Source of the DNA: an uncultured Muribaculaceae bacterium
Lineage (GTDB): Bacteria > Bacillota_I > Bacilli_A > RF39 > UBA660
Length of the DNA: 64,000 nucleotides
Assembly: GCA_964384115.1 (NCBI GenBank)
Contig: CAYLJU010000002.1
Span: forward strand, 4,912-68,911
Reading direction: 5' to 3'
Positions 1-31,100 of the stretch are shown one piece after another (the first letter of the stretch is position 1; the number at the start of each line of letters is the position of its first letter). The notes beneath the pieces are model-generated. The model was not told the origin of the DNA. It was given only the letters and a program-made list of their open reading frames with translations, and did no database searches. The translations under genes were made by a program, and so were the position numbers.

Positions 1-141
1 ATAATTCATAAATTCATCAGTGGCATAATACACCATATTTGTTTTTATAGTTTCTAACAATAAACTTAAAGCACTATCATAACTGATAATAATATCACCA
101 CCGACACATTTTAAACATACTTTTTTTTGATACTTTTCCAT
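1..141 (-). CDS. Partial small Cys-containing protein (CxxC), 5' end outside window
   Basis: Minus-strand ORF MEKYQKKVCLKCVGG... starting at ATG (complement of 139-141) and running off the window; not in the ORF track (it has no in-window end). Confidence 0.3.
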   Translation of the reverse strand, partial: MEKYQKKVCLKCVGGDIIISYDSALSLLLETIKTNMVYYATDEFMNY

Positions 142-246
142 ATTATATTTATTCCTTTTTTAAATTTCAATTAAATTTATTTTTTAATTGACAAATAAAT
201 TTTAATTGATTTTTGGAGTTTCTGAAAAGTTATAATTACTTAAAAT

Positions 247-597
247 TTAGTGATTTTTATGATTATACTTTTTAATAGGTTTTCCATATTGTCCTGATAC
301 ATCTTGTCCCCAACAAAATTTACAACGATAAATAAAACCATCACTAATAAGTTTATTCTTTAATTTACCATAAACAAAATTCTGATTAAACATATTAACA
401 AATTCATTTTTCTTTTTAAATTCTTCGTGTTGTTGTTTTAAATAATCAACTCTTTTATTTTTTTCTCTTTCTTCATCAATTTTCTTTAAATAATTATCTA
501 TCCTCTTTTCAATAGCAATTTGTATATCTTCATCAAGTCCAAAAGTAATAGTAGTATCATTTATACCTAATAATTTTAATAACTCTTTATCGTTCAT
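247..597 (-). CDS. Hypothetical protein on integrated element (C-terminal CxxC/zinc-finger-like)
   Basis: 116-aa ORF with a charged helical N-terminus and a C-terminal YRCKFCWGQD motif; overlaps the upstream xis-like gene by 11 nt (operon). Confidence 0.45.
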   Translation of the reverse strand: MNDKELLKLLGINDTTITFGLDEDIQIAIEKRIDNYLKKIDEEREKNKRVDYLKQQHEEFKKKNEFVNMFNQNFVYGKLKNKLISDGFIYRCKFCWGQDVSGQYGKPIKKYNHKNH

Positions 598-769
598 TCT
601 TAACCCCTCTTGAATTGATAAAAGTTTTTAAATCAATTTCACTAACTAAATATTGCCTACCAATAAAATGTGCCTTTAATTGATGAGATTTAATTAAATA
701 TCTTAAATATGGTATAGGTGTTTTTAATTTAAAAGATATTTCTTTTAGTGTGTAATATATTTCATTCAT
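587..769 (-). CDS. Excisionase-family helix-turn-helix DNA-binding protein (Xis-like)
   Basis: 60 aa; 'LKEISFKLKTPIPYLRYLIKSHQLKAHFIGRQYLVSEIDL' matches the MerR-type excisionase HTH signature found next to recombinases on mobile elements. Confidence 0.55.
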   Translation of the reverse strand: MNEIYYTLKEISFKLKTPIPYLRYLIKSHQLKAHFIGRQYLVSEIDLKTFINSRGVKNER

Positions 770-1162
770 ATTATCTTTTCCTCCTTATTCTTTTAGTAGT
801 AAAACAAAGAGAAAAATAAAAAAACCTATTGATAGTATATATATAATACCTACATAGTAAATTTAATAAAATGTTATAAAATAATTATTTATATTTGACC
901 GTTTTTAAGACCTTTTTTAGCAATTTTAAGAGGTATTAAATATCGTTCTAATGTATTTATATTAAAAAGATTAAATCTAACAGGAGCAACCTCTAAAATC
1001 AATATTTTAAGTATAGGGGGGCTTTTTAAAGTAAAAAAAGATATTCAAGTCCTAAAAAGACCACATAGTCCATAATTAAATTGAGCCAAATTAAAATAAC
1101 ATTTTAATAAATATATTTAAAATTATATAAAACAACAATAATTGATGATATAATATTGATAG

Positions 1163-2014
1163 ATGATATGTATGAGAAAAAAAAGATATAAGATTAAAAA
1201 ATTAAATGTTCTAATTTTTATTATTGGTGTAATATGTTTCATATTTCTTATCATTTCTTTAATTAACATAATTCATTGGAAAATAAATTCAAATGAAATA
1301 AAAGAAGAAACAAATAATATAAATGAGATAGTAGAAATTATAGAAGTAGAAGAAACAGAAGAACAAGAAATTGAAATTATAGAACAAGAAATAGAACCTG
1401 AACCATTTAATCCATATTGGGATTATATAAAAATGAACTTAATTGATGTAGAATTCAATGAACTAAAAAAAATTAACGATGACACAAAAGGATGGATACA
1501 AGTTAATGGAACAAATATTAACTATCCATTCGTTCAAGCAACCGATAACAAATATTATTTAACTCACACATTCAATAAAAATTATAATTCTGCTGGATGG
1601 GTATTTTTAGATTATCGTAATGACATAAATAACCTAAATAAAAATACCATTATATATGCTCACGGAAGAGATGATAAAACTATGTTTGGTTCATTAAAAA
1701 ATATATTAAAAAGTGGATGGTTAAACAATACAGATAACTATATAATTAAATTATCAACAGAAACACACAACACTCTATGGCAAGTATTCAGTGTCTATCG
1801 TATTCCTACAACAAGTGATTATTTAAAAATAGATTTTTATAGTAGTGAAGATTTTATAGATTTTACAAATAAACTAATAAATAGAAGCAAACATAATTTT
1901 AATACAACAATAAATGAAAATGATAAAATACTCACTCTTTCCACTTGTTATAATGATGATGACAAAGTAGTTCTTCATTCTAAACTAATTAAAATAGAAA
2001 CAAAAAATAGTTAG
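1163..2014 (+). CDS. srtB: Sortase, class B family (SrtB-like)
   Basis: N-terminal TM anchor plus an acidic linker. 'GWIQVNGTNINYP', 'NTIIYAHGRDDKTMF' (His) and 'LTLSTC' (catalytic Cys) align with S. aureus SrtB. The position of the catalytic Arg appears to hold Lys (DDKVVLHSKLI against S. aureus SrtB TTKRIVVVAKII). Confidence 0.75.
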   Translation: MICMRKKRYKIKKLNVLIFIIGVICFIFLIISLINIIHWKINSNEIKEETNNINEIVEIIEVEETEEQEIEIIEQEIEPEPFNPYWDYIKMNLIDVEFNELKKINDDTKGWIQVNGTNINYPFVQATDNKYYLTHTFNKNYNSAGWVFLDYRNDINNLNKNTIIYAHGRDDKTMFGSLKNILKSGWLNNTDNYIIKLSTETHNTLWQVFSVYRIPTTSDYLKIDFYSSEDFIDFTNKLINRSKHNFNTTINENDKILTLSTCYNDDDKVVLHSKLIKIETKNS

Positions 2015-2043
2015 ATTTTCCTAACTATTTTTCATTATACAAA

Positions 2044-3630
2044 TTAAATCTTACTTTTTGATTTATTATTTCTTATCAAGAAATATATTGTTCCACATAA
2101 GCCAATAAATGAAATAACACTAATTATAATATTATTTGAAATTCCATCAAGTGTTTGTGGGTTTTCTATTGCTTCACTTGCTAATACATAAGTACTAAAA
2201 TGATTAGTAATAAATTTTACATAATTTTTACCATCTACTTTAACTACTTCACCATCATATACTTCTTTATCTTCTGATGTTTCAGAAACATAATAAACTT
2301 TATGTTTATCTCCAACTTTATATTTTTCATCTACTGGAAAATAAACTTCTATTCCTTTATCAATTTTATTTACAAATGTTCCATCAAAAGATTTTGTTAA
2401 TGACATATCATAAGCAGATTTTACAACTAAATTTTCTTTATCAAATCTATCTTTTATTTTTTTATTATCTTTAACATCATTTGCTTTTACTCTAACATCA
2501 AGAGGAACATCATAACTATCAGTTTTAACATTTACACCAGTTTTGCTATCGTGTGCCTCTACATATAAATCTTCTACATATTCTTTTGGAACCTCAACAA
2601 CAACAAAAAATAATTCTTTATCATTTATAGTTATTGTAGAATAATAACCAGTAGCATCTATTCCCTCTGTTCCTAAAAAATTATTTACATAATTATCAAC
2701 CCATTCAGAACCTAACTCATCATCAGCAGTATAACCATTTTCAATTTCAACTTCAATTTCAACCTTGTTATTAAAATATTCATTTAATCTTGTTTCTACT
2801 TTCTCTTTTAAATTACCAGTGCTATCTTTATCTACAAATAAAATTCGTTCTTCATAATGGTCTAGTTGCTTAATACCATACATAACTCCATCTTTAAACA
2901 TTCCAGCTTGAATAACACGATGTCTTGTTATAGGGTCTCCTCCACCTCTACCACCGTTAGATACATATTGATATTCAGGATATTGTTCCATTATTTTCTT
3001 AAAATTTGAATAACGAGCAAATATAGCATCTTTTTTATAATCTGCTTCTTCTAAATTACCATAATGATATGTTAAATTAACTAATTGTAATCCATATAAT
3101 CTATCTTCTTTTTTAAAGTTTGATAAAATCTTCTTGGCTTTTTCAACTTCTTTCATATTTACATCTGTTAGATATGAAATTTCTACATCAATTTCCATAT
3201 GTTCAGTACCATTTTCAGTATCATAATAATAATCAATAGTTGCCTTATTTTTATTTGGGTTTTCAATATCAAAATTCAAGTATAAATCAGTAGCATCATA
3301 ACCTAAATACTTTAAATATAATTTCATCATATCATTATAATACATTCCCAAACACATATTAGTTTGCTCTAAAATCCATTCATCACTTGACATACCATCT
3401 TCTGTATCATATCTATCATTATAATCATCTGTTGTAAATAAACATTCATTCTCAATAATAATATCAGGATTTACTATTTTTGTTTTAAAATATTTTTTAC
3501 CATCTACTTCTTCAAATGGCAAATTTTCTAATTTAGCAAGCACTTCTTCCTCTGTTAAAGCACTTACAAAATTAGGTGTAATCATTGTAATCATAACAAG
3601 CATAAACAATATAAAATTTTTCTTTTTCAT
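2044..3630 (-). CDS. Cell-wall-anchored surface protein with NPQT-type (sortase B) sorting signal
   Basis: Signal peptide MKKKNFILFMLVMITMITPNFVSA, probable start at 3630 after a GGAGGAG RBS. C-terminus 'NPQTLDG' + hydrophobic segment + KSKSKI is a sorting signal resembling SrtB substrates (NPQTN). Adjacent and divergent to the sortase gene. Confidence 0.7.
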   Translation of the reverse strand: MKKKNFILFMLVMITMITPNFVSALTEEEVLAKLENLPFEEVDGKKYFKTKIVNPDIIIENECLFTTDDYNDRYDTEDGMSSDEWILEQTNMCLGMYYNDMMKLYLKYLGYDATDLYLNFDIENPNKNKATIDYYYDTENGTEHMEIDVEISYLTDVNMKEVEKAKKILSNFKKEDRLYGLQLVNLTYHYGNLEEADYKKDAIFARYSNFKKIMEQYPEYQYVSNGGRGGGDPITRHRVIQAGMFKDGVMYGIKQLDHYEERILFVDKDSTGNLKEKVETRLNEYFNNKVEIEVEIENGYTADDELGSEWVDNYVNNFLGTEGIDATGYYSTITINDKELFFVVVEVPKEYVEDLYVEAHDSKTGVNVKTDSYDVPLDVRVKANDVKDNKKIKDRFDKENLVVKSAYDMSLTKSFDGTFVNKIDKGIEVYFPVDEKYKVGDKHKVYYVSETSEDKEVYDGEVVKVDGKNYVKFITNHFSTYVLASEAIENPQTLDGISNNIIISVISFIGLCGTIYFLIRNNKSKSKI

Positions 3631-4064
3631 TTTCACTACTCCTCCTATCATAATTTGATTATAACACAATTTGTAGATTTTTTACCAACAAAATTAAAAT
3701 TATATGTTTTTGTTAAATTTAATACTTTACAGAAACTACATAACATATAATATAATCTTAATAAATAATATAAATATATATATTTATTGAAAGATAATTA
3801 TTTTATTATATTTATAAGATGGAAAAGAAATTATACTTATAATATATTATACTTGTATTACATAAGATAATTATTTGAATATATTTATTTCATTATATTT
3901 AAGATATATATTATTTATTTAATTTATAATTATTTTAAATAATATTTATTATATTTAACTTAATTTACTTATATAGTATATAACTAATTTAATTATTATA
4001 ATTTTATACACTCTAATAAATATATATATAAATATATTTATTTAAAAATAAAAGAATGAACTAA

Positions 4065-4589
4065 TTATAAGTCCATTCCCTCTATTGAATAAAAATCTAC
4101 TGAATTAAAATTATCTATGTTAATTAAATCTAATTTATCATAACCATTAAAAAAATTATTACAAAGCATTTGTGCCATATCTTGTTTTATATTTTCATCA
4201 TCTAAATAAAGAAAATAATATTTCTCCATTGATTTATAAATATCAGGTTTAAATTTAATAGCACTACATTTCACTAAAGAACTCATAGCCCCCATTTCAG
4301 ACACTAATATAGATAATATTTTTAATGTATTTTCAGTTTTTAAAACTATATCTTTATCTTTACTATCTAAATCAAATACTATTTTATTTTCATCATTTGC
4401 TTTTTTCATTATTGGAATAATATATTCATTAACATATTTTTCACAAGTTTTATCATATTCTTTTGTTCTCTTAATATATTCAACTTCAACTTTTGCCATT
4501 TCTTGATATTTGTTTTCAATACTTGGTATTTTATTATCAATTAAACTACCTGTCATATTATTAGAAAAGTCAAGAACTGTTTGATACAC
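4065..4589 (-). CDS. Hypothetical protein; probably the 3' portion of a longer frameshifted gene (about 4065..4834)
   Basis: 174-aa ORF. An upstream ORF starting at 4834 (RBS GGAG; MKKVNVYKSMKPNKNNF...) continues into this frame after a +1 shift at an A7/T7 homopolymer (4725-4731). Confidence 0.4.
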   Translation of the reverse strand: MYQTVLDFSNNMTGSLIDNKIPSIENKYQEMAKVEVEYIKRTKEYDKTCEKYVNEYIIPIMKKANDENKIVFDLDSKDKDIVLKTENTLKILSILVSEMGAMSSLVKCSAIKFKPDIYKSMEKYYFLYLDDENIKQDMAQMLCNNFFNGYDKLDLINIDNFNSVDFYSIEGMDL

Positions 4590-4843
4590 ATAATCTTGTT
4601 CTTCTTCTGTTGCTTTAGCATTACAACAATTAAGGAAATTTTGATAATAATTTTCAAGTTTTTTATTATCTTTTAAAAATTTTTCATTACAATAATCTAT
4701 TAAATTTTCTTCATCTAATTTTGGAAAAAAACAAACTTTGTATAGTATAAATTAACTTTGTTAAGATTACTATTACCACCTTTAAAATTATTTTTATTTG
4801 GTTTCATACTTTTATAAACATTTACTTTTTTCATAATCTACTC

Positions 4844-5062
4844 CTAACTAATTCTAATATATATATCTTTATTTTTTCGTATAATAGTATCAACTATTTT
4901 TAGTGCTTCCTCAAATTGATGTAATTTAATCAATTCAAAAACTTTTTCTAATCTTTCAACTATTTTTAAAAGCATATTATTTTGATTTTTCAATTTAATT
5001 CTATTTTTACTAATTTTATAAATATTCATAATAAAATAATATAAATCATAATTTTGAAGCAT
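4844..5062 (-). CDS. Small hypothetical protein (72 aa)
   Basis: ORF-track only; no recognisable domain. Confidence 0.2.
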   Translation of the reverse strand: MLQNYDLYYFIMNIYKISKNRIKLKNQNNMLLKIVERLEKVFELIKLHQFEEALKIVDTIIRKNKDIYIRIS

Positions 5063-5191
5063 TACTACTTCATTTATTTTATTTTTATGTATGAGAATTA
5101 TTAGTTCATTTCTTGATATTATGAATGTGCTAGCAAAGGAAAGGATTTATAAAAATTCTTATGTCGGCATAAGTTTAATTAGGTGAAACTT

Positions 5192-5302
5192 ATGAATATC
5201 AAAATTGAATTTAATGAAGATGGTGAAAATTTACAAGAAATTATAGAAGAAAATTTAGTAGATTTTTACTATGAATTTTATGAGGTGAAAATAGCATAAA
5301 CC
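5192..5302 (+). CDS. Small acidic ORF (36 aa) upstream of the serine recombinase
   Basis: ATG preceded by AGGTGA; MNIKIEFNEDGENLQEIIEENLVDFYYEFYEVKIA; the position suggests a recombination-directionality/accessory factor, but this is speculative. Confidence 0.2.
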
Positions 5303-5377
5303 ATTGAAAAATAAGGGTTTATTTGGTATAATATATATAACATTGAATGTATATATTTTACCAAGTTAGGAGGAAAA

Positions 5378-7000
5378 ATGTTTGAGAGTAAAATATATAA
5401 TGTTGGAATTTATATTCGCCTATCAAGAGAAGATGAAGATAAAAGAAAAATTGAAAGTGAAAGTATAACAAATCAAAGAAATCTTATACTTAACTATATA
5501 AACAGGTCTGATGAAAAGTTTAAAATATATGATGAGTATGTTGATGATGGTGTATCAGGAACTACTTTTGAAAGACCAAATTTTCAAAGACTAATCAGAG
5601 ATATTGAAAGTGGCAAAATAAATTGTGTTATCACAAAAGATTATTCAAGATTAGGTAGAGATTATATTAAATCAGGTGAATATTTAGAAAGATATTTTCC
5701 AGAGCATAATGTAAGATATATTGCCATACTTGATAATATTGATACTATAAGTGATAATGCGGGAAATGATATTGCTCCATATAGAGCAATACTTAACGAC
5801 CAATATGCCAAAGATATATCTAAAAAAGTTAGAGGTTCTGTTTATACTAAAAAAAGTAATGGTGAATTTTTAGGATGGAAAGCAATATATGGTTATAAGA
5901 AAGATGAAAAAAACAAAAACAAATTAGTTATAGATGAAGAAGCAGCAAAAATTGTAAGAAGAATTTTTAAAATGGCTTATAATGGTAAAAGTTGTAAAAA
6001 CATTGCTGATACTCTTTCAAAAGAGGGGGTGCCAATTCCAAGTGTATATGCTAATTTAAATCGTGGAAGAAAGTCATCAGCTTATGGCTTATGGTGTCCG
6101 AGAACTATTGATGAAATGTTATCAAATCAAACTTATATTGGTAATTTAACACAAGGAAGAAGAAAAAGAATAAACTATAAGATTAAAAAAGAAGTTAGAG
6201 TTCCACAAGAACAATGGATTATAGTTGAAAATACACATGAACCTATTATTGATAAAGAAATGTTTGATAAAGTTCAAATACTAAAAGACAAAAATAAAAA
6301 CAAACAAAGTAAATCAAGTAATTACTTATTAAGAGGTTTCTTATATTGTGAAGAATGCGGTCATTCATTAACAATATGTAAAAGAACTGAAACAAGAGCA
6401 TACACAGGTTGTTCTCATTATCAAAAATATAGCAAATTTGGTGTATGTACTCCTCATAGTATGAATTATCAAGATTTAGAAAAAGAAGTATTAAAAGAAG
6501 TTAGAGCAATATGTAGAAAATATGTTAAAAGCACTAATTTTGAAACAATACTTAAAAATTCATCTAAAACAAAAAAGATTAAAGATAATTTAATTGGTGA
6601 AATCAATGCTTGTAAATTAGAAAAAGAAAGATTATCTAATGTTAAGAAAAACATCTATTTTGATAAAGCAAATAATATTATTACACTTGGTGAATATAAA
6701 GAATATTCTAATCAAATAGTAAATGATATTATAATTCAAGATGAAAAATTAAAAGATTTAGAAAAACAATTAAATATCATAGATAATAAAATGACACCTG
6801 ATGATGATTATAAGGTAATAGTTCAAGAATATTTAAGTATGAGAAAACCAAGTAGATTTTTATTAGCAAGTATAATTGATAAAATTGTTATTAACAACAA
6901 CAAAGAAATCACTATTAAATTAAAAATTAAGAACCCAGAACTATATTTAAAAGAATTAAGCACTAAACAAAGTGCTTTAAAAAATAGCCCTGTGTTATAA
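5378..7000 (+). CDS. Large serine recombinase (resolvase/invertase N-domain + recombinase + zinc-ribbon + coiled-coil)
   Basis: N-terminal 'VGIYIRLSREDEDK...ITNQR...GVSGTTFERPNFQRLIRD...DYSRLGRD' is the catalytic serine-recombinase domain. The central Cys cluster CEECGHSL...CSHYQKYSKFGVC and the C-terminal coiled-coil are typical of TndX/CcrB/phiC31-like integrases. Confidence 0.9.
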   Translation: MFESKIYNVGIYIRLSREDEDKRKIESESITNQRNLILNYINRSDEKFKIYDEYVDDGVSGTTFERPNFQRLIRDIESGKINCVITKDYSRLGRDYIKSGEYLERYFPEHNVRYIAILDNIDTISDNAGNDIAPYRAILNDQYAKDISKKVRGSVYTKKSNGEFLGWKAIYGYKKDEKNKNKLVIDEEAAKIVRRIFKMAYNGKSCKNIADTLSKEGVPIPSVYANLNRGRKSSAYGLWCPRTIDEMLSNQTYIGNLTQGRRKRINYKIKKEVRVPQEQWIIVENTHEPIIDKEMFDKVQILKDKNKNKQSKSSNYLLRGFLYCEECGHSLTICKRTETRAYTGCSHYQKYSKFGVCTPHSMNYQDLEKEVLKEVRAICRKYVKSTNFETILKNSSKTKKIKDNLIGEINACKLEKERLSNVKKNIYFDKANNIITLGEYKEYSNQIVNDIIIQDEKLKDLEKQLNIIDNKMTPDDDYKVIVQEYLSMRKPSRFLLASIIDKIVINNNKEITIKLKIKNPELYLKELSTKQSALKNSPVL

Positions 7001-7003
7001 CTT

Positions 7004-7476
7004 CGGATGAGATTGCCTTTTCTTCCTCCGATTATATAGGAATTTTTAAGCATTTCTATATTAAAATTATCAATTTTTTTTCTTGATACTATGAAACTAC
7101 CATCTTTTTTGGTTAATCCGGCAAAATTTACAAGATAGTCTTTTTCTCCTTGATTATATACATATATAGTTGCTTCACTTCCACAAAATCCTATTTGAAC
7201 ATCTCCTGATAAGACAGCTGCTGTTACTTTATCCGCGCCAGCTGTTAGGATTATTTCTACGTCTAGTCCTTCTTCTTCAAAATATCCTAAAGCGTGGGCG
7301 ATGTATTGTGGTGTATAAAATACGGAATGAGTTACTTCGGCAACTTTAACTTTTTTAAGTGTACTTTTTTCATTTTTGAATAAGAATAAAGATCCTATTA
7401 ATACTACTAGTGTAAGTATTAGTATGAGTAAAAAATATTTTTTCATTTTTCCTCCTTTTCTTTTTATTATATTCAA
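7004..7476 (-). pseudogene. 5' fragment of an ABC-transporter substrate-binding protein gene (NMT1/SsuA-like), interrupted by element insertion
   Basis: Lipoprotein/TM N-terminus followed by 'VFYTPQYIAHALGYFEEEGLDVEIILTAGADKVTAAVLSGDVQIGFCG' (NMT1/SsuA-like SBP). Homology stops after about 155 aa right at the recombinase stop codon, and the rest of the ORF is antisense recombinase sequence. Confidence 0.65.
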
Positions 7477-7546
7477 AAAAATAAATATTGTTATTGTTAT
7501 AAATTTTTATATGTGTTAAACTATATATAAGGAGTATAGGTGAATT

Positions 7547-8053
7547 ATGAGTTTATATTATATTGCAAATTTGTATAAGGAAATTGATTATAAGGCATTA
7601 ATTGAAGTTATGTTTGAAGAAGCGGATTCTTTTTATTTAAGAGTTTCAAGATCGAGAATAGGTGATAAATATAACAATGGCCGTGATGAATTTTTGGGTC
7701 TTCCGAAATGTATAATATCTGAAAGTTCAAGGTCTAAATATTATGCTGATATGCATTTTTTAATTACGCCTGAACTTAAGGATATGGTTTTTAAATATTT
7801 AAATCCTGATGGTATATGTGCTTTTGGTTTTTATAAGGATAATATACGTATTTTTTGTACGGAAGAAGCAAGTATGACTTATATTGTTTTAAAGGATGAT
7901 ATGGTTTCTATTAAAACAAAATTATTGAATAAGGGGATTAAAATTGATCGATTTACGGCTATAATGGAACCTTGGGTTATAAATGAAAAAGGTTATGAAT
8001 ATTATGCTAAAAATCCTTCTAAAGTTAAAGATATTAAATTTTTGATGGGGTAG
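7547..8053 (+). CDS. Hypothetical protein (168 aa)
   Basis: Good ORF with an RBS, immediately upstream of pcrA; no recognisable domain. Confidence 0.4.
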   Translation: MSLYYIANLYKEIDYKALIEVMFEEADSFYLRVSRSRIGDKYNNGRDEFLGLPKCIISESSRSKYYADMHFLITPELKDMVFKYLNPDGICAFGFYKDNIRIFCTEEASMTYIVLKDDMVSIKTKLLNKGIKIDRFTAIMEPWVINEKGYEYYAKNPSKVKDIKFLMG

Positions 8054-8055
8054 TT

Positions 8056-10122
8056 ATGAAATTAGATGGTTTAAATGAAGAACAACTTAATGCGGTTAAA
8101 ACAACAGATGGACCTCTTTTAGTTTTAGCTGGTGCTGGTAGTGGAAAAACGAGAGTTTTAACTACGAGAATTGCATATTTAATAAATAGTGGAGTTGATC
8201 CATATAATATACTTGCTATAACTTTTACAAATAAAGCTGCAAAAGAAATGAAGGAGCGAGTTTTTAATTTAGTTGGTGATGTTAAAAATATTCAGATTTC
8301 TACATTTCATTCATTTGGTTTATATATTATTCGAAATCATTATAATTTACTTGGTTATGATAGAAATTTTACTATTTTAGATGGTGATGATTCACTTGTT
8401 TTAGTTAAAAACATATTAAAAGAAATGGGAATTAATTCTGATGATTATAATCCTAAAGCTATAAGAAATAAAATTAGTGGTGCGAAAAATGAACTTGTTT
8501 TTCCTTTAGAATATCAAAAATACGCCAATACTGATTTTGAAGAAATTGTTTATAAAGTTTATAAGAAATACGAGGAAAAATTAAAAATTAACAATAGTGT
8601 TGATTTTGATGATTTACTTGTATTACCTATTAAATTATTTAATACATTTCCTGATATTTTAAAAATGTATCAAGAAAGATTTAAATATATTTTAGTTGAT
8701 GAGTATCAAGATACAAATAGAGTTCAGTACATATTAGTTAATATGCTTGCAGCAAAATATAAAAATATTTGTGTTGTTGGCGATAATGATCAAGCTATAT
8801 ATTCTTGGAGAGGATCTGATTATCGCAACATACTTAATTTTGAAAATGATTATCCTAATTTAAAATCTGTTATGCTTGAAGAAAATTATCGGTCAACTGG
8901 TTTAATATTAAGAGCTGCTAATGATGTTATTAAACATAATAAAATAAGAAAAGAAAAAAATTTATGGACACATCATGAAGAGGGAAGTAAGATAAGATAT
9001 CATCGGGCAAATGATGAAAAAGATGAAGCATACTATGTTGTTAATGAGATTAAAAATCTTTTATACGATGGTGTTAAACGAGAGGATATTGCTGTTTTAT
9101 ATAGAACTAATGCTCAATCAAGAAATATTGAAGAAGCGATGCTTAGAGAAAATATTCCTTATAAAGTAATAGGAAGTTTTTATTTCTATAATCGTAAGGA
9201 AATTAAAGATTTAATTGCTTATTTGAAATTGATTTATAATAAAAATGATGATTTAAATTTACTTAGAATTATTAATGTTCCTAAAAGAGGTATTGGTGAA
9301 AAAACTATTTCTAATTTAAATGAAAAATCCTTTAGATTTAATAAATGCTTATATGATTCTATTGATAGTGGAAAAGAACTATTGTTTAAAAATTTAATAG
9401 AAGAATTAAGGGAAGATTCAAAAAATGTTAGTTTAACTGAATTAGTTGACTTGATTTTAGATAAAAGTGGGATAAGAAGAGAACTTGAAAACGAAAAATC
9501 AGTTGATTCAGAAATTAGATTATCAAATCTTGAAGAATTTAAATCAATTACTAGAACTTTTGAAGAAAAGGCTGAAAGTGTTAGTTTGGAAGATTTTTTG
9601 TCTGAAATTAGTTTAGTTGCTGATATGAATGAACATAAAGATGAAAAAAATGTTGTTACTTTAATGACTATGCATGCTGCTAAAGGATTAGAATTTGATT
9701 ATGTTTTTGTAATTGGTATGGAAGAAGGATTATTTCCACATCTTAATAGTATGGAACTTGATGATATCGAAGAAGAAAGAAGACTTTGTTATGTAGCTAT
9801 TACAAGAGCTAAGAAGAAATTATGGCTTGTTAATGCTAAAAGTAGGATGATTTATGGTAAACATGATAATTATTTGCCTAGTAGATTTATAAGTGAAATA
9901 TCTGATGAGTGTTTAGAAAAAGATGAAATTAAAAAATATGAGAATACTTGTGATAGTTCTATAGAATATAATTTAGGGGAAATTTTGTTTCATAAAATTT
10001 TTGGTCCTGGTGTTGTTGTTGGTATGGATGATAAGGATTTAACAATCGCTTTTAGTAATAAATATGGTATAAAAAAAATTGCTCGTGGTCATGATAGTTT
10101 AAGGAGGAATGATGATGCTTAA
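8056..10122 (+). CDS. pcrA: ATP-dependent DNA helicase PcrA (UvrD family)
   Basis: Walker A 'AGAGSGKTRVLT', 'TFTNKAAKEM', 'VDEYQDTN', 'YRS', 'LMTMHAAKGLEFD', 'VAITRAKKKL' are UvrD/PcrA motifs. Confidence 0.9.
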   Translation: MKLDGLNEEQLNAVKTTDGPLLVLAGAGSGKTRVLTTRIAYLINSGVDPYNILAITFTNKAAKEMKERVFNLVGDVKNIQISTFHSFGLYIIRNHYNLLGYDRNFTILDGDDSLVLVKNILKEMGINSDDYNPKAIRNKISGAKNELVFPLEYQKYANTDFEEIVYKVYKKYEEKLKINNSVDFDDLLVLPIKLFNTFPDILKMYQERFKYILVDEYQDTNRVQYILVNMLAAKYKNICVVGDNDQAIYSWRGSDYRNILNFENDYPNLKSVMLEENYRSTGLILRAANDVIKHNKIRKEKNLWTHHEEGSKIRYHRANDEKDEAYYVVNEIKNLLYDGVKREDIAVLYRTNAQSRNIEEAMLRENIPYKVIGSFYFYNRKEIKDLIAYLKLIYNKNDDLNLLRIINVPKRGIGEKTISNLNEKSFRFNKCLYDSIDSGKELLFKNLIEELREDSKNVSLTELVDLILDKSGIRRELENEKSVDSEIRLSNLEEFKSITRTFEEKAESVSLEDFLSEISLVADMNEHKDEKNVVTLMTMHAAKGLEFDYVFVIGMEEGLFPHLNSMELDDIEEERRLCYVAITRAKKKLWLVNAKSRMIYGKHDNYLPSRFISEISDECLEKDEIKKYENTCDSSIEYNLGEILFHKIFGPGVVVGMDDKDLTIAFSNKYGIKKIARGHDSLRRNDDA

Positions 10123-19497: not shown

Positions 19498-19573
19498 GCA
19501 CGTATGGTGAAGCGGTTAACACGGCGGATTGTGGTTCCGTTATGCGTGGGTTCGAACCCCACTATGTGCTCCA
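19498..19573 (+). tRNA. tRNA-His (anticodon GUG)
   Basis: A cloverleaf can be folded by eye: 7-bp acceptor, D-arm AGCGGTTA, anticodon stem GCGGA/TCCGT with loop TTGTGGT, T-arm GTGGG-TTCGAAC-CCCAC, encoded CCA. Position -1 is A and the discriminator is U (not the usual G-1/C73). Promoter TTGCAA-17-TAAAAT upstream. Confidence 0.8.
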
Positions 19574-30689: not shown

Positions 30690-30950
30690 TTTATAGTTCT
30701 ATGTTTTGTTATGCTGCTATTAATGAAGGTACTGGGATAACAGTTAATTATATTGCATAAGCAAGTATTCTTGTAGATAGTGTGATTGCAAATAATTCTA
30801 ATGTTGTAAAGGGTGTGAAATGTAAAATTATTATAAAAACTATTGATTTTTGAATAAAAATATATTAATATATGCTTATAAACGTTGATTGGAAGAGTAT
30901 AATTATTATCTATTATAGAAAGTTAATGGTTGATGGAAATTAATATAGAT
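30690..30950 (+). repeat. Copy A of a roughly 230-nt repeated element with two tandem mini-ORFs (30701..30760 and 30782..30853)
   Basis: About 70% identity with 49190..49420 including codon-phased indels; see findings. Confidence 0.5.
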
Positions 30951-31100
30951 GTAGTTAGAAAGACACCAGGAGTGCTTAGGCGAAATTAGTAGAATGAGCC
31001 GGTTAAAACCGTTATATTTAAGAGTGACTATTTTATAGTAATAAAGGTGGTACCGCGGATTAACAGTGATTCGTCCTTTTTTAGGACGACACTGTTTTTT
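30930..31100 (+). promoter_or_regulatory. T-box riboswitch leader (asnS)
   Basis: T-box consensus AAGGTGGTACCGCGG at 31044-31058, terminator hairpin + U-run, then an AGGAGG RBS. Confidence 0.7.

Follow-up and report, generated by a model that had tools for sequence, protein, structure and literature searches.

The left end of the DNA stretch analysed here, a window of 64 kb from contig CAYLJU010000002.1, brings together a gene for a large serine recombinase (LSR), genes for a sortase and for a secreted protein with a sorting signal and, immediately beyond the LSR gene, the 5′ fragment of a gene for an ATP-binding cassette (ABC) substrate-binding protein (SBP). All coordinates are window positions, with negative values lying to the left of the window start; comparison loci are designated by L numbers. 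The window has a GC content of about 25% and derives from a very AT-rich uncultured gut lineage; the genomes closest to it, which originate from human, chicken and ruminant gut, are labelled uncultured Firmicutes, Bacilli, Tenericutes, Mollicutes, ‘Candidatus Coprosoma’, ‘Candidatus Faecisoma’ and Firmicutes bacterium CAG:884. In our opinion, window 1..7017 together with about 590 bp to its left very probably constitutes a 7,605-bp integrative mobile element, which was inserted by its own LSR and carries a surface-display cassette.

The SBP fragment occupies 7015..7446 on the minus strand and comprises codons 1–144 of an NMT1/SsuA-superfamily protein. Translation starts at 7446, at an ATG with a GGAGG ribosome-binding site, and not at position 7476, where an initial annotation of this DNA had placed the start. 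The reading frame continues to 6823 as a 207-aa fusion open reading frame (ORF), composed of 144 SBP codons and 63 codons of antisense LSR sequence; within the entire minus-strand ORF 6823..7476, the Pfam match to NMT1-type SBPs is confined to the first part. Searches by tblastn with longer homologues place the end of SBP homology at 7009–7015, with no continuation in another frame across the junction and no further SBP piece elsewhere in the window. The homology is lost at codon Gly144 (7015–7017), 14 nt from the end of the LSR gene. The initial annotation was therefore right to describe a frame that runs into antisense recombinase sequence and a gene that loses its 3′ part where the LSR gene ends; its estimate of about 155 SBP residues is to be reduced to 144 codons. 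The lipoprotein-type, NMT1/SsuA-like SBP that it proposed retains the NMT1/SsuA assignment and loses the lipoprotein one, since the N-terminus contains no cysteine and thus corresponds to a signal anchor rather than to a lipobox.

The 3′ side of the element was read from L010, a 9.9-kb Logan contig (run SRR6824180, from the same sample as the window) recovered by exact-protein look-up of the element gene orf116 (247..597). The first 5,195 bases of L010 match the reverse complement of window 1..5195 at 100% identity, and the contig runs 4.75 kb past the window start, so that L010 5055..5786 corresponds to window positions of about −590..141. The missing SBP 3′ part, which the initial annotation had expected further to the left, is indeed located past the other end of the element, some 590 bp to the left of the window start; its orientation matches that of the 5′ fragment, and ligA and then the ABC ATPase and permease genes come after it. 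When window 7446..7015 is joined to L010 5787..6356, the result is an ORF of 333 codons with no interruption, collinear with SBP homologues. An exact search for the SBP fusion ORF yielded a single contig of 3.7 kb, and one for the LSR protein gave no record, because the Logan assembly breaks within the LSR gene.

An empty site is available in L008, whose SBP, with 93% identity over the 5′ part, continues across the junction without a break. Alignment of L008 DNA with the host flank proceeds at 95.2% identity up to the junction, jumps by 7.6 kb and resumes at 91%, and the two alignments overlap by three bases, GGC. The jump and the overlap therefore define an element of 7,605 bp, with no target-site duplication and with GGC alone common to element and target. 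These results bear out the initial annotation in its placement of the right attachment site at about 7000–7030 (the junction lies at 7015–7017), in its expectation of an element of at least 7 kb continuing beyond the window start and in its suggestion that a related genome would hold an uninterrupted attB, which L008 does at 95% identity. The compositional check that it also suggested does not discriminate: the GC content of the element is 22.4% compared with 24.7% for the host, and its tetranucleotide distance is within the host range.

Comparison of the occupied and empty sites places attR at 6994..7040 on the minus strand. It consists of a P′ arm (7014..6994, AATCTCATCCGAAGTTATAAC), which overlaps the LSR stop codon (6998–7000), the shared core GGC (7017..7015) containing the crossover GG (7017..7016), and a B arm (7018..7040). 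In the sense of the SBP gene, attR reads ...AGAAAAGGC|AATCTCATCCGAAGTTATAACAC on the window minus strand, attL reads ...GTTATAACTTATGATGAGATGGGGC|GGAATGCC... on L010, and attB, which lies within SBP codons 139–151 (IIGGRKG|GMPEMT), reads ATAATCGGAGGAAGAAAAGGC|GGAATGCCAGAAATGACAC. The rebuilt attP, in the same sense, is GTTATAACTTATGATGAGAT-GG[GG]CA-ATCTCATCCGAAGTTATAAC, where the bracketed GG is the central dinucleotide; its arms of 20 bp are complementary at 18 of 20 positions, with GG at the exact centre. The corresponding synthetic junction sequences are ACTTATGATGAGATGGGGCAATCTCATCCGAAGT for attP and ATCGGAGGAAGAAAAGGCGGAATGCCAGAAATGAC for attB. The core can be narrowed further with relatives. 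In L107, a complete element of 10.3 kb with a 98% identical LSR, attR carries GGC and attL carries GGT, and in L058 the respective triplets are GGG and GGA. The third core base thus differs between attR and attL, which means that the parental sites differ at this base and that the crossover is exactly GG. Inverted-repeat attP arms round a central dinucleotide, no duplication and identity with attB limited to GGC together make up, as far as sequence anatomy can tell, a textbook LSR attP/attB pair.

The recombinase itself (5378..7000, plus strand, 540 aa) was recognized as an LSR in the initial annotation, and Pfam identifies all three domains of such an enzyme: Resolvase (PF00239, 68 bits), Recombinase (PF07508, 88.7 bits) and Zn_ribbon_recom (PF13408, 45.6 bits). 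Its catalytic Ser16, in the motif YIRLSRED, aligns to the TnpX motif YERLSRDD. The best matches among solved structures are the TnpX catalytic domain (2mhc, E 2.6e-24) and, over the full length, the SPbeta integrase YokA (9dxh); the LSR is no more than 35% identical to anything in phage and plasmid collections. A conserved small ORF of 35 aa (5192..5296, plus strand), 91% identical in L092 and 77% in L095, lies upstream of the LSR gene.

At the opposite end of the element, a minus-strand gene (587..769) encodes a 60-aa helix-turn-helix (HTH) protein of the excisionase family, with matches above cutoff to PF12728 and TIGR01764; the score on the latter, 32.7 bits against a cutoff of 28.8, agrees with the excisionase-like HTH gene of the initial annotation. 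It overlaps by 11 nt with orf116 (247..597, minus strand), which has a C-terminal CxxC...HxxH motif, is kept in all relatives and is 58% identical at the same position in L058. The 5′ part of orf102 (aa 1–47 of 102) follows at 1..141, likewise on the minus strand; the remainder of orf102 is found left of the window, on L010, as are orf79 and attL. The recombination backbone is located at two ends, with the LSR gene and the 35-aa ORF at one and the gene for the HTH protein, orf116, in some cases orf102, and orf79 at the other. The backbone ORFs lacking a known match returned nothing from Pfam, PHROGs, NCBIfam or PADLOC. The 60-aa HTH protein, perhaps together with orf116, is a candidate recombination directionality factor or regulator.

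Comparison of relatives shows a conserved backbone with exchangeable cargo, and an element that is more conserved than the DNA around it. In L058, from a metagenome-assembled genome of deer rumen, the backbone is kept (LSR 71%, HTH protein 66%, orf116 58% and orf79 37% identical) and the cargo is entirely different. The elements of L091–L093 and L107–L110 are 91–98% identical to that of the window at the nucleotide level, compared with 65–80% for the host flanks, and one host, with an SBP of only 72% identity, has an LSR of 89% identity at the same codon. An exact match to the 60-aa HTH protein is recorded in 61 blocks of the assembly collection; ten of the ten places shown lie at the SBP site, and at least three cargo versions are present among them. 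In every case seen, this LSR sits at a single codon of a single gene, and the core is GG. Conservation of the element above that of its flanks, combined with exchanged cargo, indicates horizontal spread and hence mobility of this element family.

The following mechanism would account for these features. The LSR would insert the element by conservative site-specific recombination between attP and attB, with strand exchange at the GG of SBP codon Gly144; integration would split the SBP gene and presumably inactivate the SBP, while precise recombination of attL with attR would restore the intact 333-codon gene. Excision probably needs a directionality factor, for which the 60-aa HTH protein, perhaps acting with orf116, is the candidate. 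The conserved recombination backbone at both ends would allow the cargo between them to be exchanged, and the sortase of the present cargo would cleave the NPQT-tailed protein and link it covalently to peptidoglycan.

This cargo begins with a class B sortase of 283 aa (1163..2014, plus strand), which passes the TIGR03064 equivalog cutoff (166.4 bits against 153.75) and has an NPQT-type substrate, presumably its own, encoded in the adjacent gene. The latter (2044..3630, minus strand) specifies a secreted surface protein of 528 aa with a signal peptide and a C-terminal NPQTL sorting signal (NPQTLD, a hydrophobic span and the basic tail RNNKSKSKI), which is unique within the window. The sortase B homologue and the NPQT-sorted surface protein of the initial annotation are therefore both substantiated. 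The surface protein has 22 homologues among 5.8 billion proteins, none with a Pfam domain, and 18 of its homologues show no variation at the N, P, T and D of the NPxTxD signal. Its AlphaFold (AF2) model is of good confidence (pLDDT 84.8) and multi-domain, with mixed alpha/beta domains followed by beta-rich ones, and has no meaningful fold match in the PDB. A 53% identical homologue of the surface protein is chromosomal in L094, with no sortase nearby, and a sortase B 45% identical to that of the window is chromosomal in L014; the cassette is thus part of the bacterial lineage's own repertoire. A role of the sortase–surface protein cassette in colonization is plausible.

Upstream of the surface-protein gene lies a spacer of 434 bp with 11% GC (3631..4064), which contains only AT-rich imperfect repeats; a repeat scan of 1..7600 likewise gave only AT-rich noise. 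It is followed on the minus strand by a frameshifted copy of a 256-aa backbone gene (4065..4834) and by orf72 (4844..5062), a C-terminal remnant of 72 aa that represents the last 79 codons of a 371-aa backbone gene. The frameshift at an A7 tract, already remarked upon in the initial annotation, is confirmed by the intact 256-aa homologue, which aligns in two frames (aa 1–36 at 4834..4727 and aa 33–256 at 4739..4068): relatives have GTTTTCACTCC where the window has GTTTTTTTCC, one base shorter, which leaves the A7 run at 4725–4731. Compared with L092, about 1.6 kb comprising a 161-aa gene and most of the 371-aa gene has been lost, as has about 1.8 kb comprising a second NPQT protein (640 aa in L092, 632 aa in L107). 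The surface protein of the window is chimeric, its body resembling the 528-aa protein of the relatives and its tail (2044–2210) resembling their second NPQT protein; the 1.8-kb deletion therefore probably arose between the similar 3′ ends of the two surface-protein genes. The window copy is therefore a deletion derivative.

The target gene was surveyed in the 80 best of 526 SBP relatives among GTDB species-representative loci, of which 75 were informative. The SBP is uninterrupted in 61 of these, cut at codon 144 (site 1) in 11 and cut at about codon 193 (site 2) in the remaining 3. A convergent LSR gene lies beside the SBP 5′ fragment in 10 of the 11 cases at site 1 and in all 3 at site 2; the site-1 exception has 491 nt of sequence remaining. 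Near-universal interruption of the SBP, an impression created by truncated homologues among the top 120 matches, is accordingly rejected. The best 120 SBP matches of a word-indexed protein search were all truncated forms (≤260 aa), and this search apparently ranks short targets higher when the query is short.

In the window's genome, ligA (L010 6470–8428) separates the SBP gene from the ATPase and permease genes, whereas the three genes of the transporter are contiguous in most relatives; on the other side of the SBP gene, pcrA (8056..10122) is divergent. Two SBP genes are damaged although site 1 is unoccupied, that of L009 (1838–2827) by an in-frame stop after ..THSD and that of L008 (1453–2625) by a frameshift after ..YNAK; either assembly errors at low coverage or relaxed selection on the transporter could explain them. 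It should also be noted that the window contains a T-box leader (118 bits) and a tRNA-His gene at 30876–31081 and 19498–19573, respectively, which are unrelated to the element.

Recombinases of several families are found in this operon. Family A, at site 1, includes the LSRs of the window and of L001, which are 48% identical to each other. Family B (568 aa; about 26% identical to family A) occupies site 2 in L004 and L005. Site 2 follows ..DFVTLFE in the SBP gene and was observed in L004 (10582–15866, the same as the L026 contig), L062, L077, L005 and L006; the complete element of L004 measures 5.3 kb and carries HD, NT5C/IU_nuc_hydro and RhuM genes. Recombinases of family C (434–465 aa) are convergent directly after the permease gene of the same operon; beside them the permease is cut to 206–213 aa at ...KINxSMSLxG, compared with 263 aa where no recombinase follows. 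The family C loci are L004 17017–18971, L009 3563–5614 and L105 8939–10892, with L106 5158–5949 as the uninterrupted comparison, and the same permease-site pattern recurs in species representatives L022, L029, L040, L051, L063 and L086.

Other site-1 elements differ in size and content. That of L001 (10453–20453) exceeds 10 kb and encodes ApeA_NTD1, ADP-ribosylglycohydrolase, DUF4268 and DUF6076 proteins together with two small resolvases, a cargo that looks like the defence type. Those of L014 (10432–14381) and L040 (10408–13872) measure about 3.5–4 kb and have 1.1–1.5 kb of other sequence between attR and the 3′ end of the LSR gene, whereas the LSR gene of the window abuts attR. The sister elements in L001 and L004 thus have cargo resembling defence or nucleotide-metabolism genes.

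That unrelated LSRs converge on a single conserved gene has been described before (PMC10083194). A broader and, in our opinion, improbable proposition is that a family of minimal LSR cassette carriers spreads among species of uncultured gut Bacilli with no recognizable transfer or replication gene of its own and that three unrelated LSR lineages have converged on the importer operon, at SBP codon 144, SBP codon ~193 and permease codon ~205, because its interruption is selected or tolerated. If this were true, integration would act as a reversible switch that trades nutrient uptake for surface or defence cargo.

Several observations weigh against the interpretation as a mobile element. Sequences spanning the attP junction, as expected of an excised circle, had no match in JGI metagenome contigs or IMG/VR; attL was taken from a separate assembly of the same sample rather than from the window itself; the window copy has lost about 3.4 kb and carries a frameshift, and could be decaying; and searches with Pfam, NCBIfam, PHROGs and PADLOC gave no match to any relaxase, replication, conjugation or phage family. 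No relaxase, type IV secretion system or type IV coupling protein family was found with Pfam and NCBIfam in the element or in its larger relatives, where several backbone ORFs have no detectable homology and an oriT is not recognizable by sequence. Because no transfer genes were found, spread from cell to cell probably depends on other elements or on DNA uptake.

The main alternative is that of an immobilized, decaying relic of a past LSR insertion, which no longer excises or transfers and leaves the SBP permanently dead. The losses of 1.6 and 1.8 kb, the frameshifted 256-aa gene, the missing attP junction and the decay of the SBP also at unoccupied sites in L008 and L009 would all fit such a relic. 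We nevertheless consider it unlikely, because the losses are confined to cargo and unknown genes and spare the recombination module: the LSR ORF is full-length and 98% identical to that of the complete element in L107, both att arms are intact, with a P′ arm identical to that of L107, and the HTH protein is 100% identical in all contigs from the exact-sequence look-up, which represent several hosts and cargo sets. The element may still be active today.

An alternative of a different kind is a regulated, gene-interrupting switch comparable to skin, SPbeta or the Anabaena fdxN element, in which programmed excision would restore the transporter gene. Excision would indeed restore the reading frame exactly, to an intact ORF of 333 aa; the SPbeta integrase is among the nearest solved relatives of the LSR, which also has weak similarity to XisF (NCBIfam); and an excisionase-family gene is conserved beside attL. 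An element of this kind would be expected to be fixed in its lineage, whereas only 14 of the 75 informative species have an interrupted gene and the majority have an intact one with no element. Variable cargo and conservation exceeding that of the hosts are, moreover, typical of a horizontally moving element, and we regard a programmed switch as quite improbable.

It is more improbable still that the element is a prophage or phage satellite. The best PHROGs match of the LSR is indeed a phage integrase family, and distant relatives (≤35% identity) occur in human faecal ‘Bacteriophage sp.’ scaffolds of 5–7.5 kb, which are unverified, unannotated linear fragments. However, 7.6 kb is far too small for a tailed phage; the PHROGs matches in the element amount to the integrase, a DNA-binding protein and one unknown, with no capsid, terminase, portal, replication or lysis family; and a scan of IMG/VR gave no relative of the LSR. 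Finally, a naturally short SBP, which the initial annotation had named as the case that would overturn its proposal, or an assembly chimera can be dismissed: although many database homologues are about 150 or 198 aa long, the LSR gene immediately adjoins each short homologue whose contig was examined, uninterrupted homologues of about 330 aa (one of them, L009, with an in-frame stop) are exemplified by the empty site of L008 and by 61 of the 75 informative species, and the same junctions appear in Logan, ENA, JGI and NCBI contigs, which were assembled independently.

The mobile element described here indicates that surface-display cassettes are carried between poorly known gut Bacilli by small LSR elements that are neither phage nor conjugative, and that a single transporter operon is a three-site landing pad shared by several LSRs. 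In addition, a resolved set of attP, attB, attL and attR with its crossover dinucleotide, belonging to a divergent LSR, is raw material for orthogonal DNA-integration tools. A literature search on LSRs, sortases and integrative elements together returned nothing. The element does not overturn current understanding, and its individual parts can be compared with known systems.

As in the class B sortase systems of Staphylococcus aureus (SrtB/IsdC, NPQTN) and Clostridioides difficile (SrtB), a sortase at the level of TIGR03064 is found next to an NPQT-type substrate. The window substrate differs in that it has no Pfam family, and hence no NEAT or haem-uptake domain, and belongs to an orphan family of 22 proteins with no fold match; moreover, the pair resides on a mobile element.

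With regard to target choice, Durrant et al. (2023; PMC10083194) derived attB and attP from occupied and empty sites, with a central dinucleotide core, and described distantly related LSR clusters that converge on one target gene cluster. The main text of that study contains no occurrence of an ABC transporter target, its supplementary tables lying outside this search. The present case differs in that three LSR families occupy three positions of one operon.

SPbeta, skin (SpoIVCA), the fdxN element (XisF) and Listeria A118 in comK are likewise LSR elements that split a protein-coding gene, and their precise excision rebuilds the gene in frame, as predicted for the window element. The integrase of SPbeta, YokA, is also known as SprA. 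Members of this group are prophages or prophage remnants of 48–134 kb, or developmental elements fixed in their species. The window family, in contrast, measures 7.6–10.3 kb, has no detected phage genes and occurs in only a minority of related species, with cargo that varies.

The staphylococcal cassette chromosome (SCC; CcrA/CcrB) is also a non-phage, non-conjugative cargo cassette that LSRs move into a conserved chromosomal gene. The window LSR has its top NCBIfam match in CcrB, with a score of 114 bits that lies far below the cutoff of 900, and the window element has a single recombinase and not a pair. The target of SCC is rlmH, whereas that of the window element is the SBP gene; size and hosts are also unlike.

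A parallel in size and layout is provided by the mobilizable transposons Tn4451/Tn4453 of Clostridium, which likewise measure 6–8 kb, have the LSR gene (tnpX) at one end and carry few cargo genes, and whose recombinase supplies, in its catalytic domain, the best solved-structure match of the window LSR. TnpX acts at several target sites and cleaves at a GA dinucleotide. The window element has no detectable TnpZ-type Mob protein or oriT, although an oriT is not recognizable by sequence here, and a sortase with its putative substrate takes the place of catP as cargo. Thus, the element is a small LSR-driven integrative cargo element of an ordinary kind, which has the specific defining features of neither the Tn4451-type, the SCC-type nor the gene-interrupting LSR elements and whose organization is nearest to these three.

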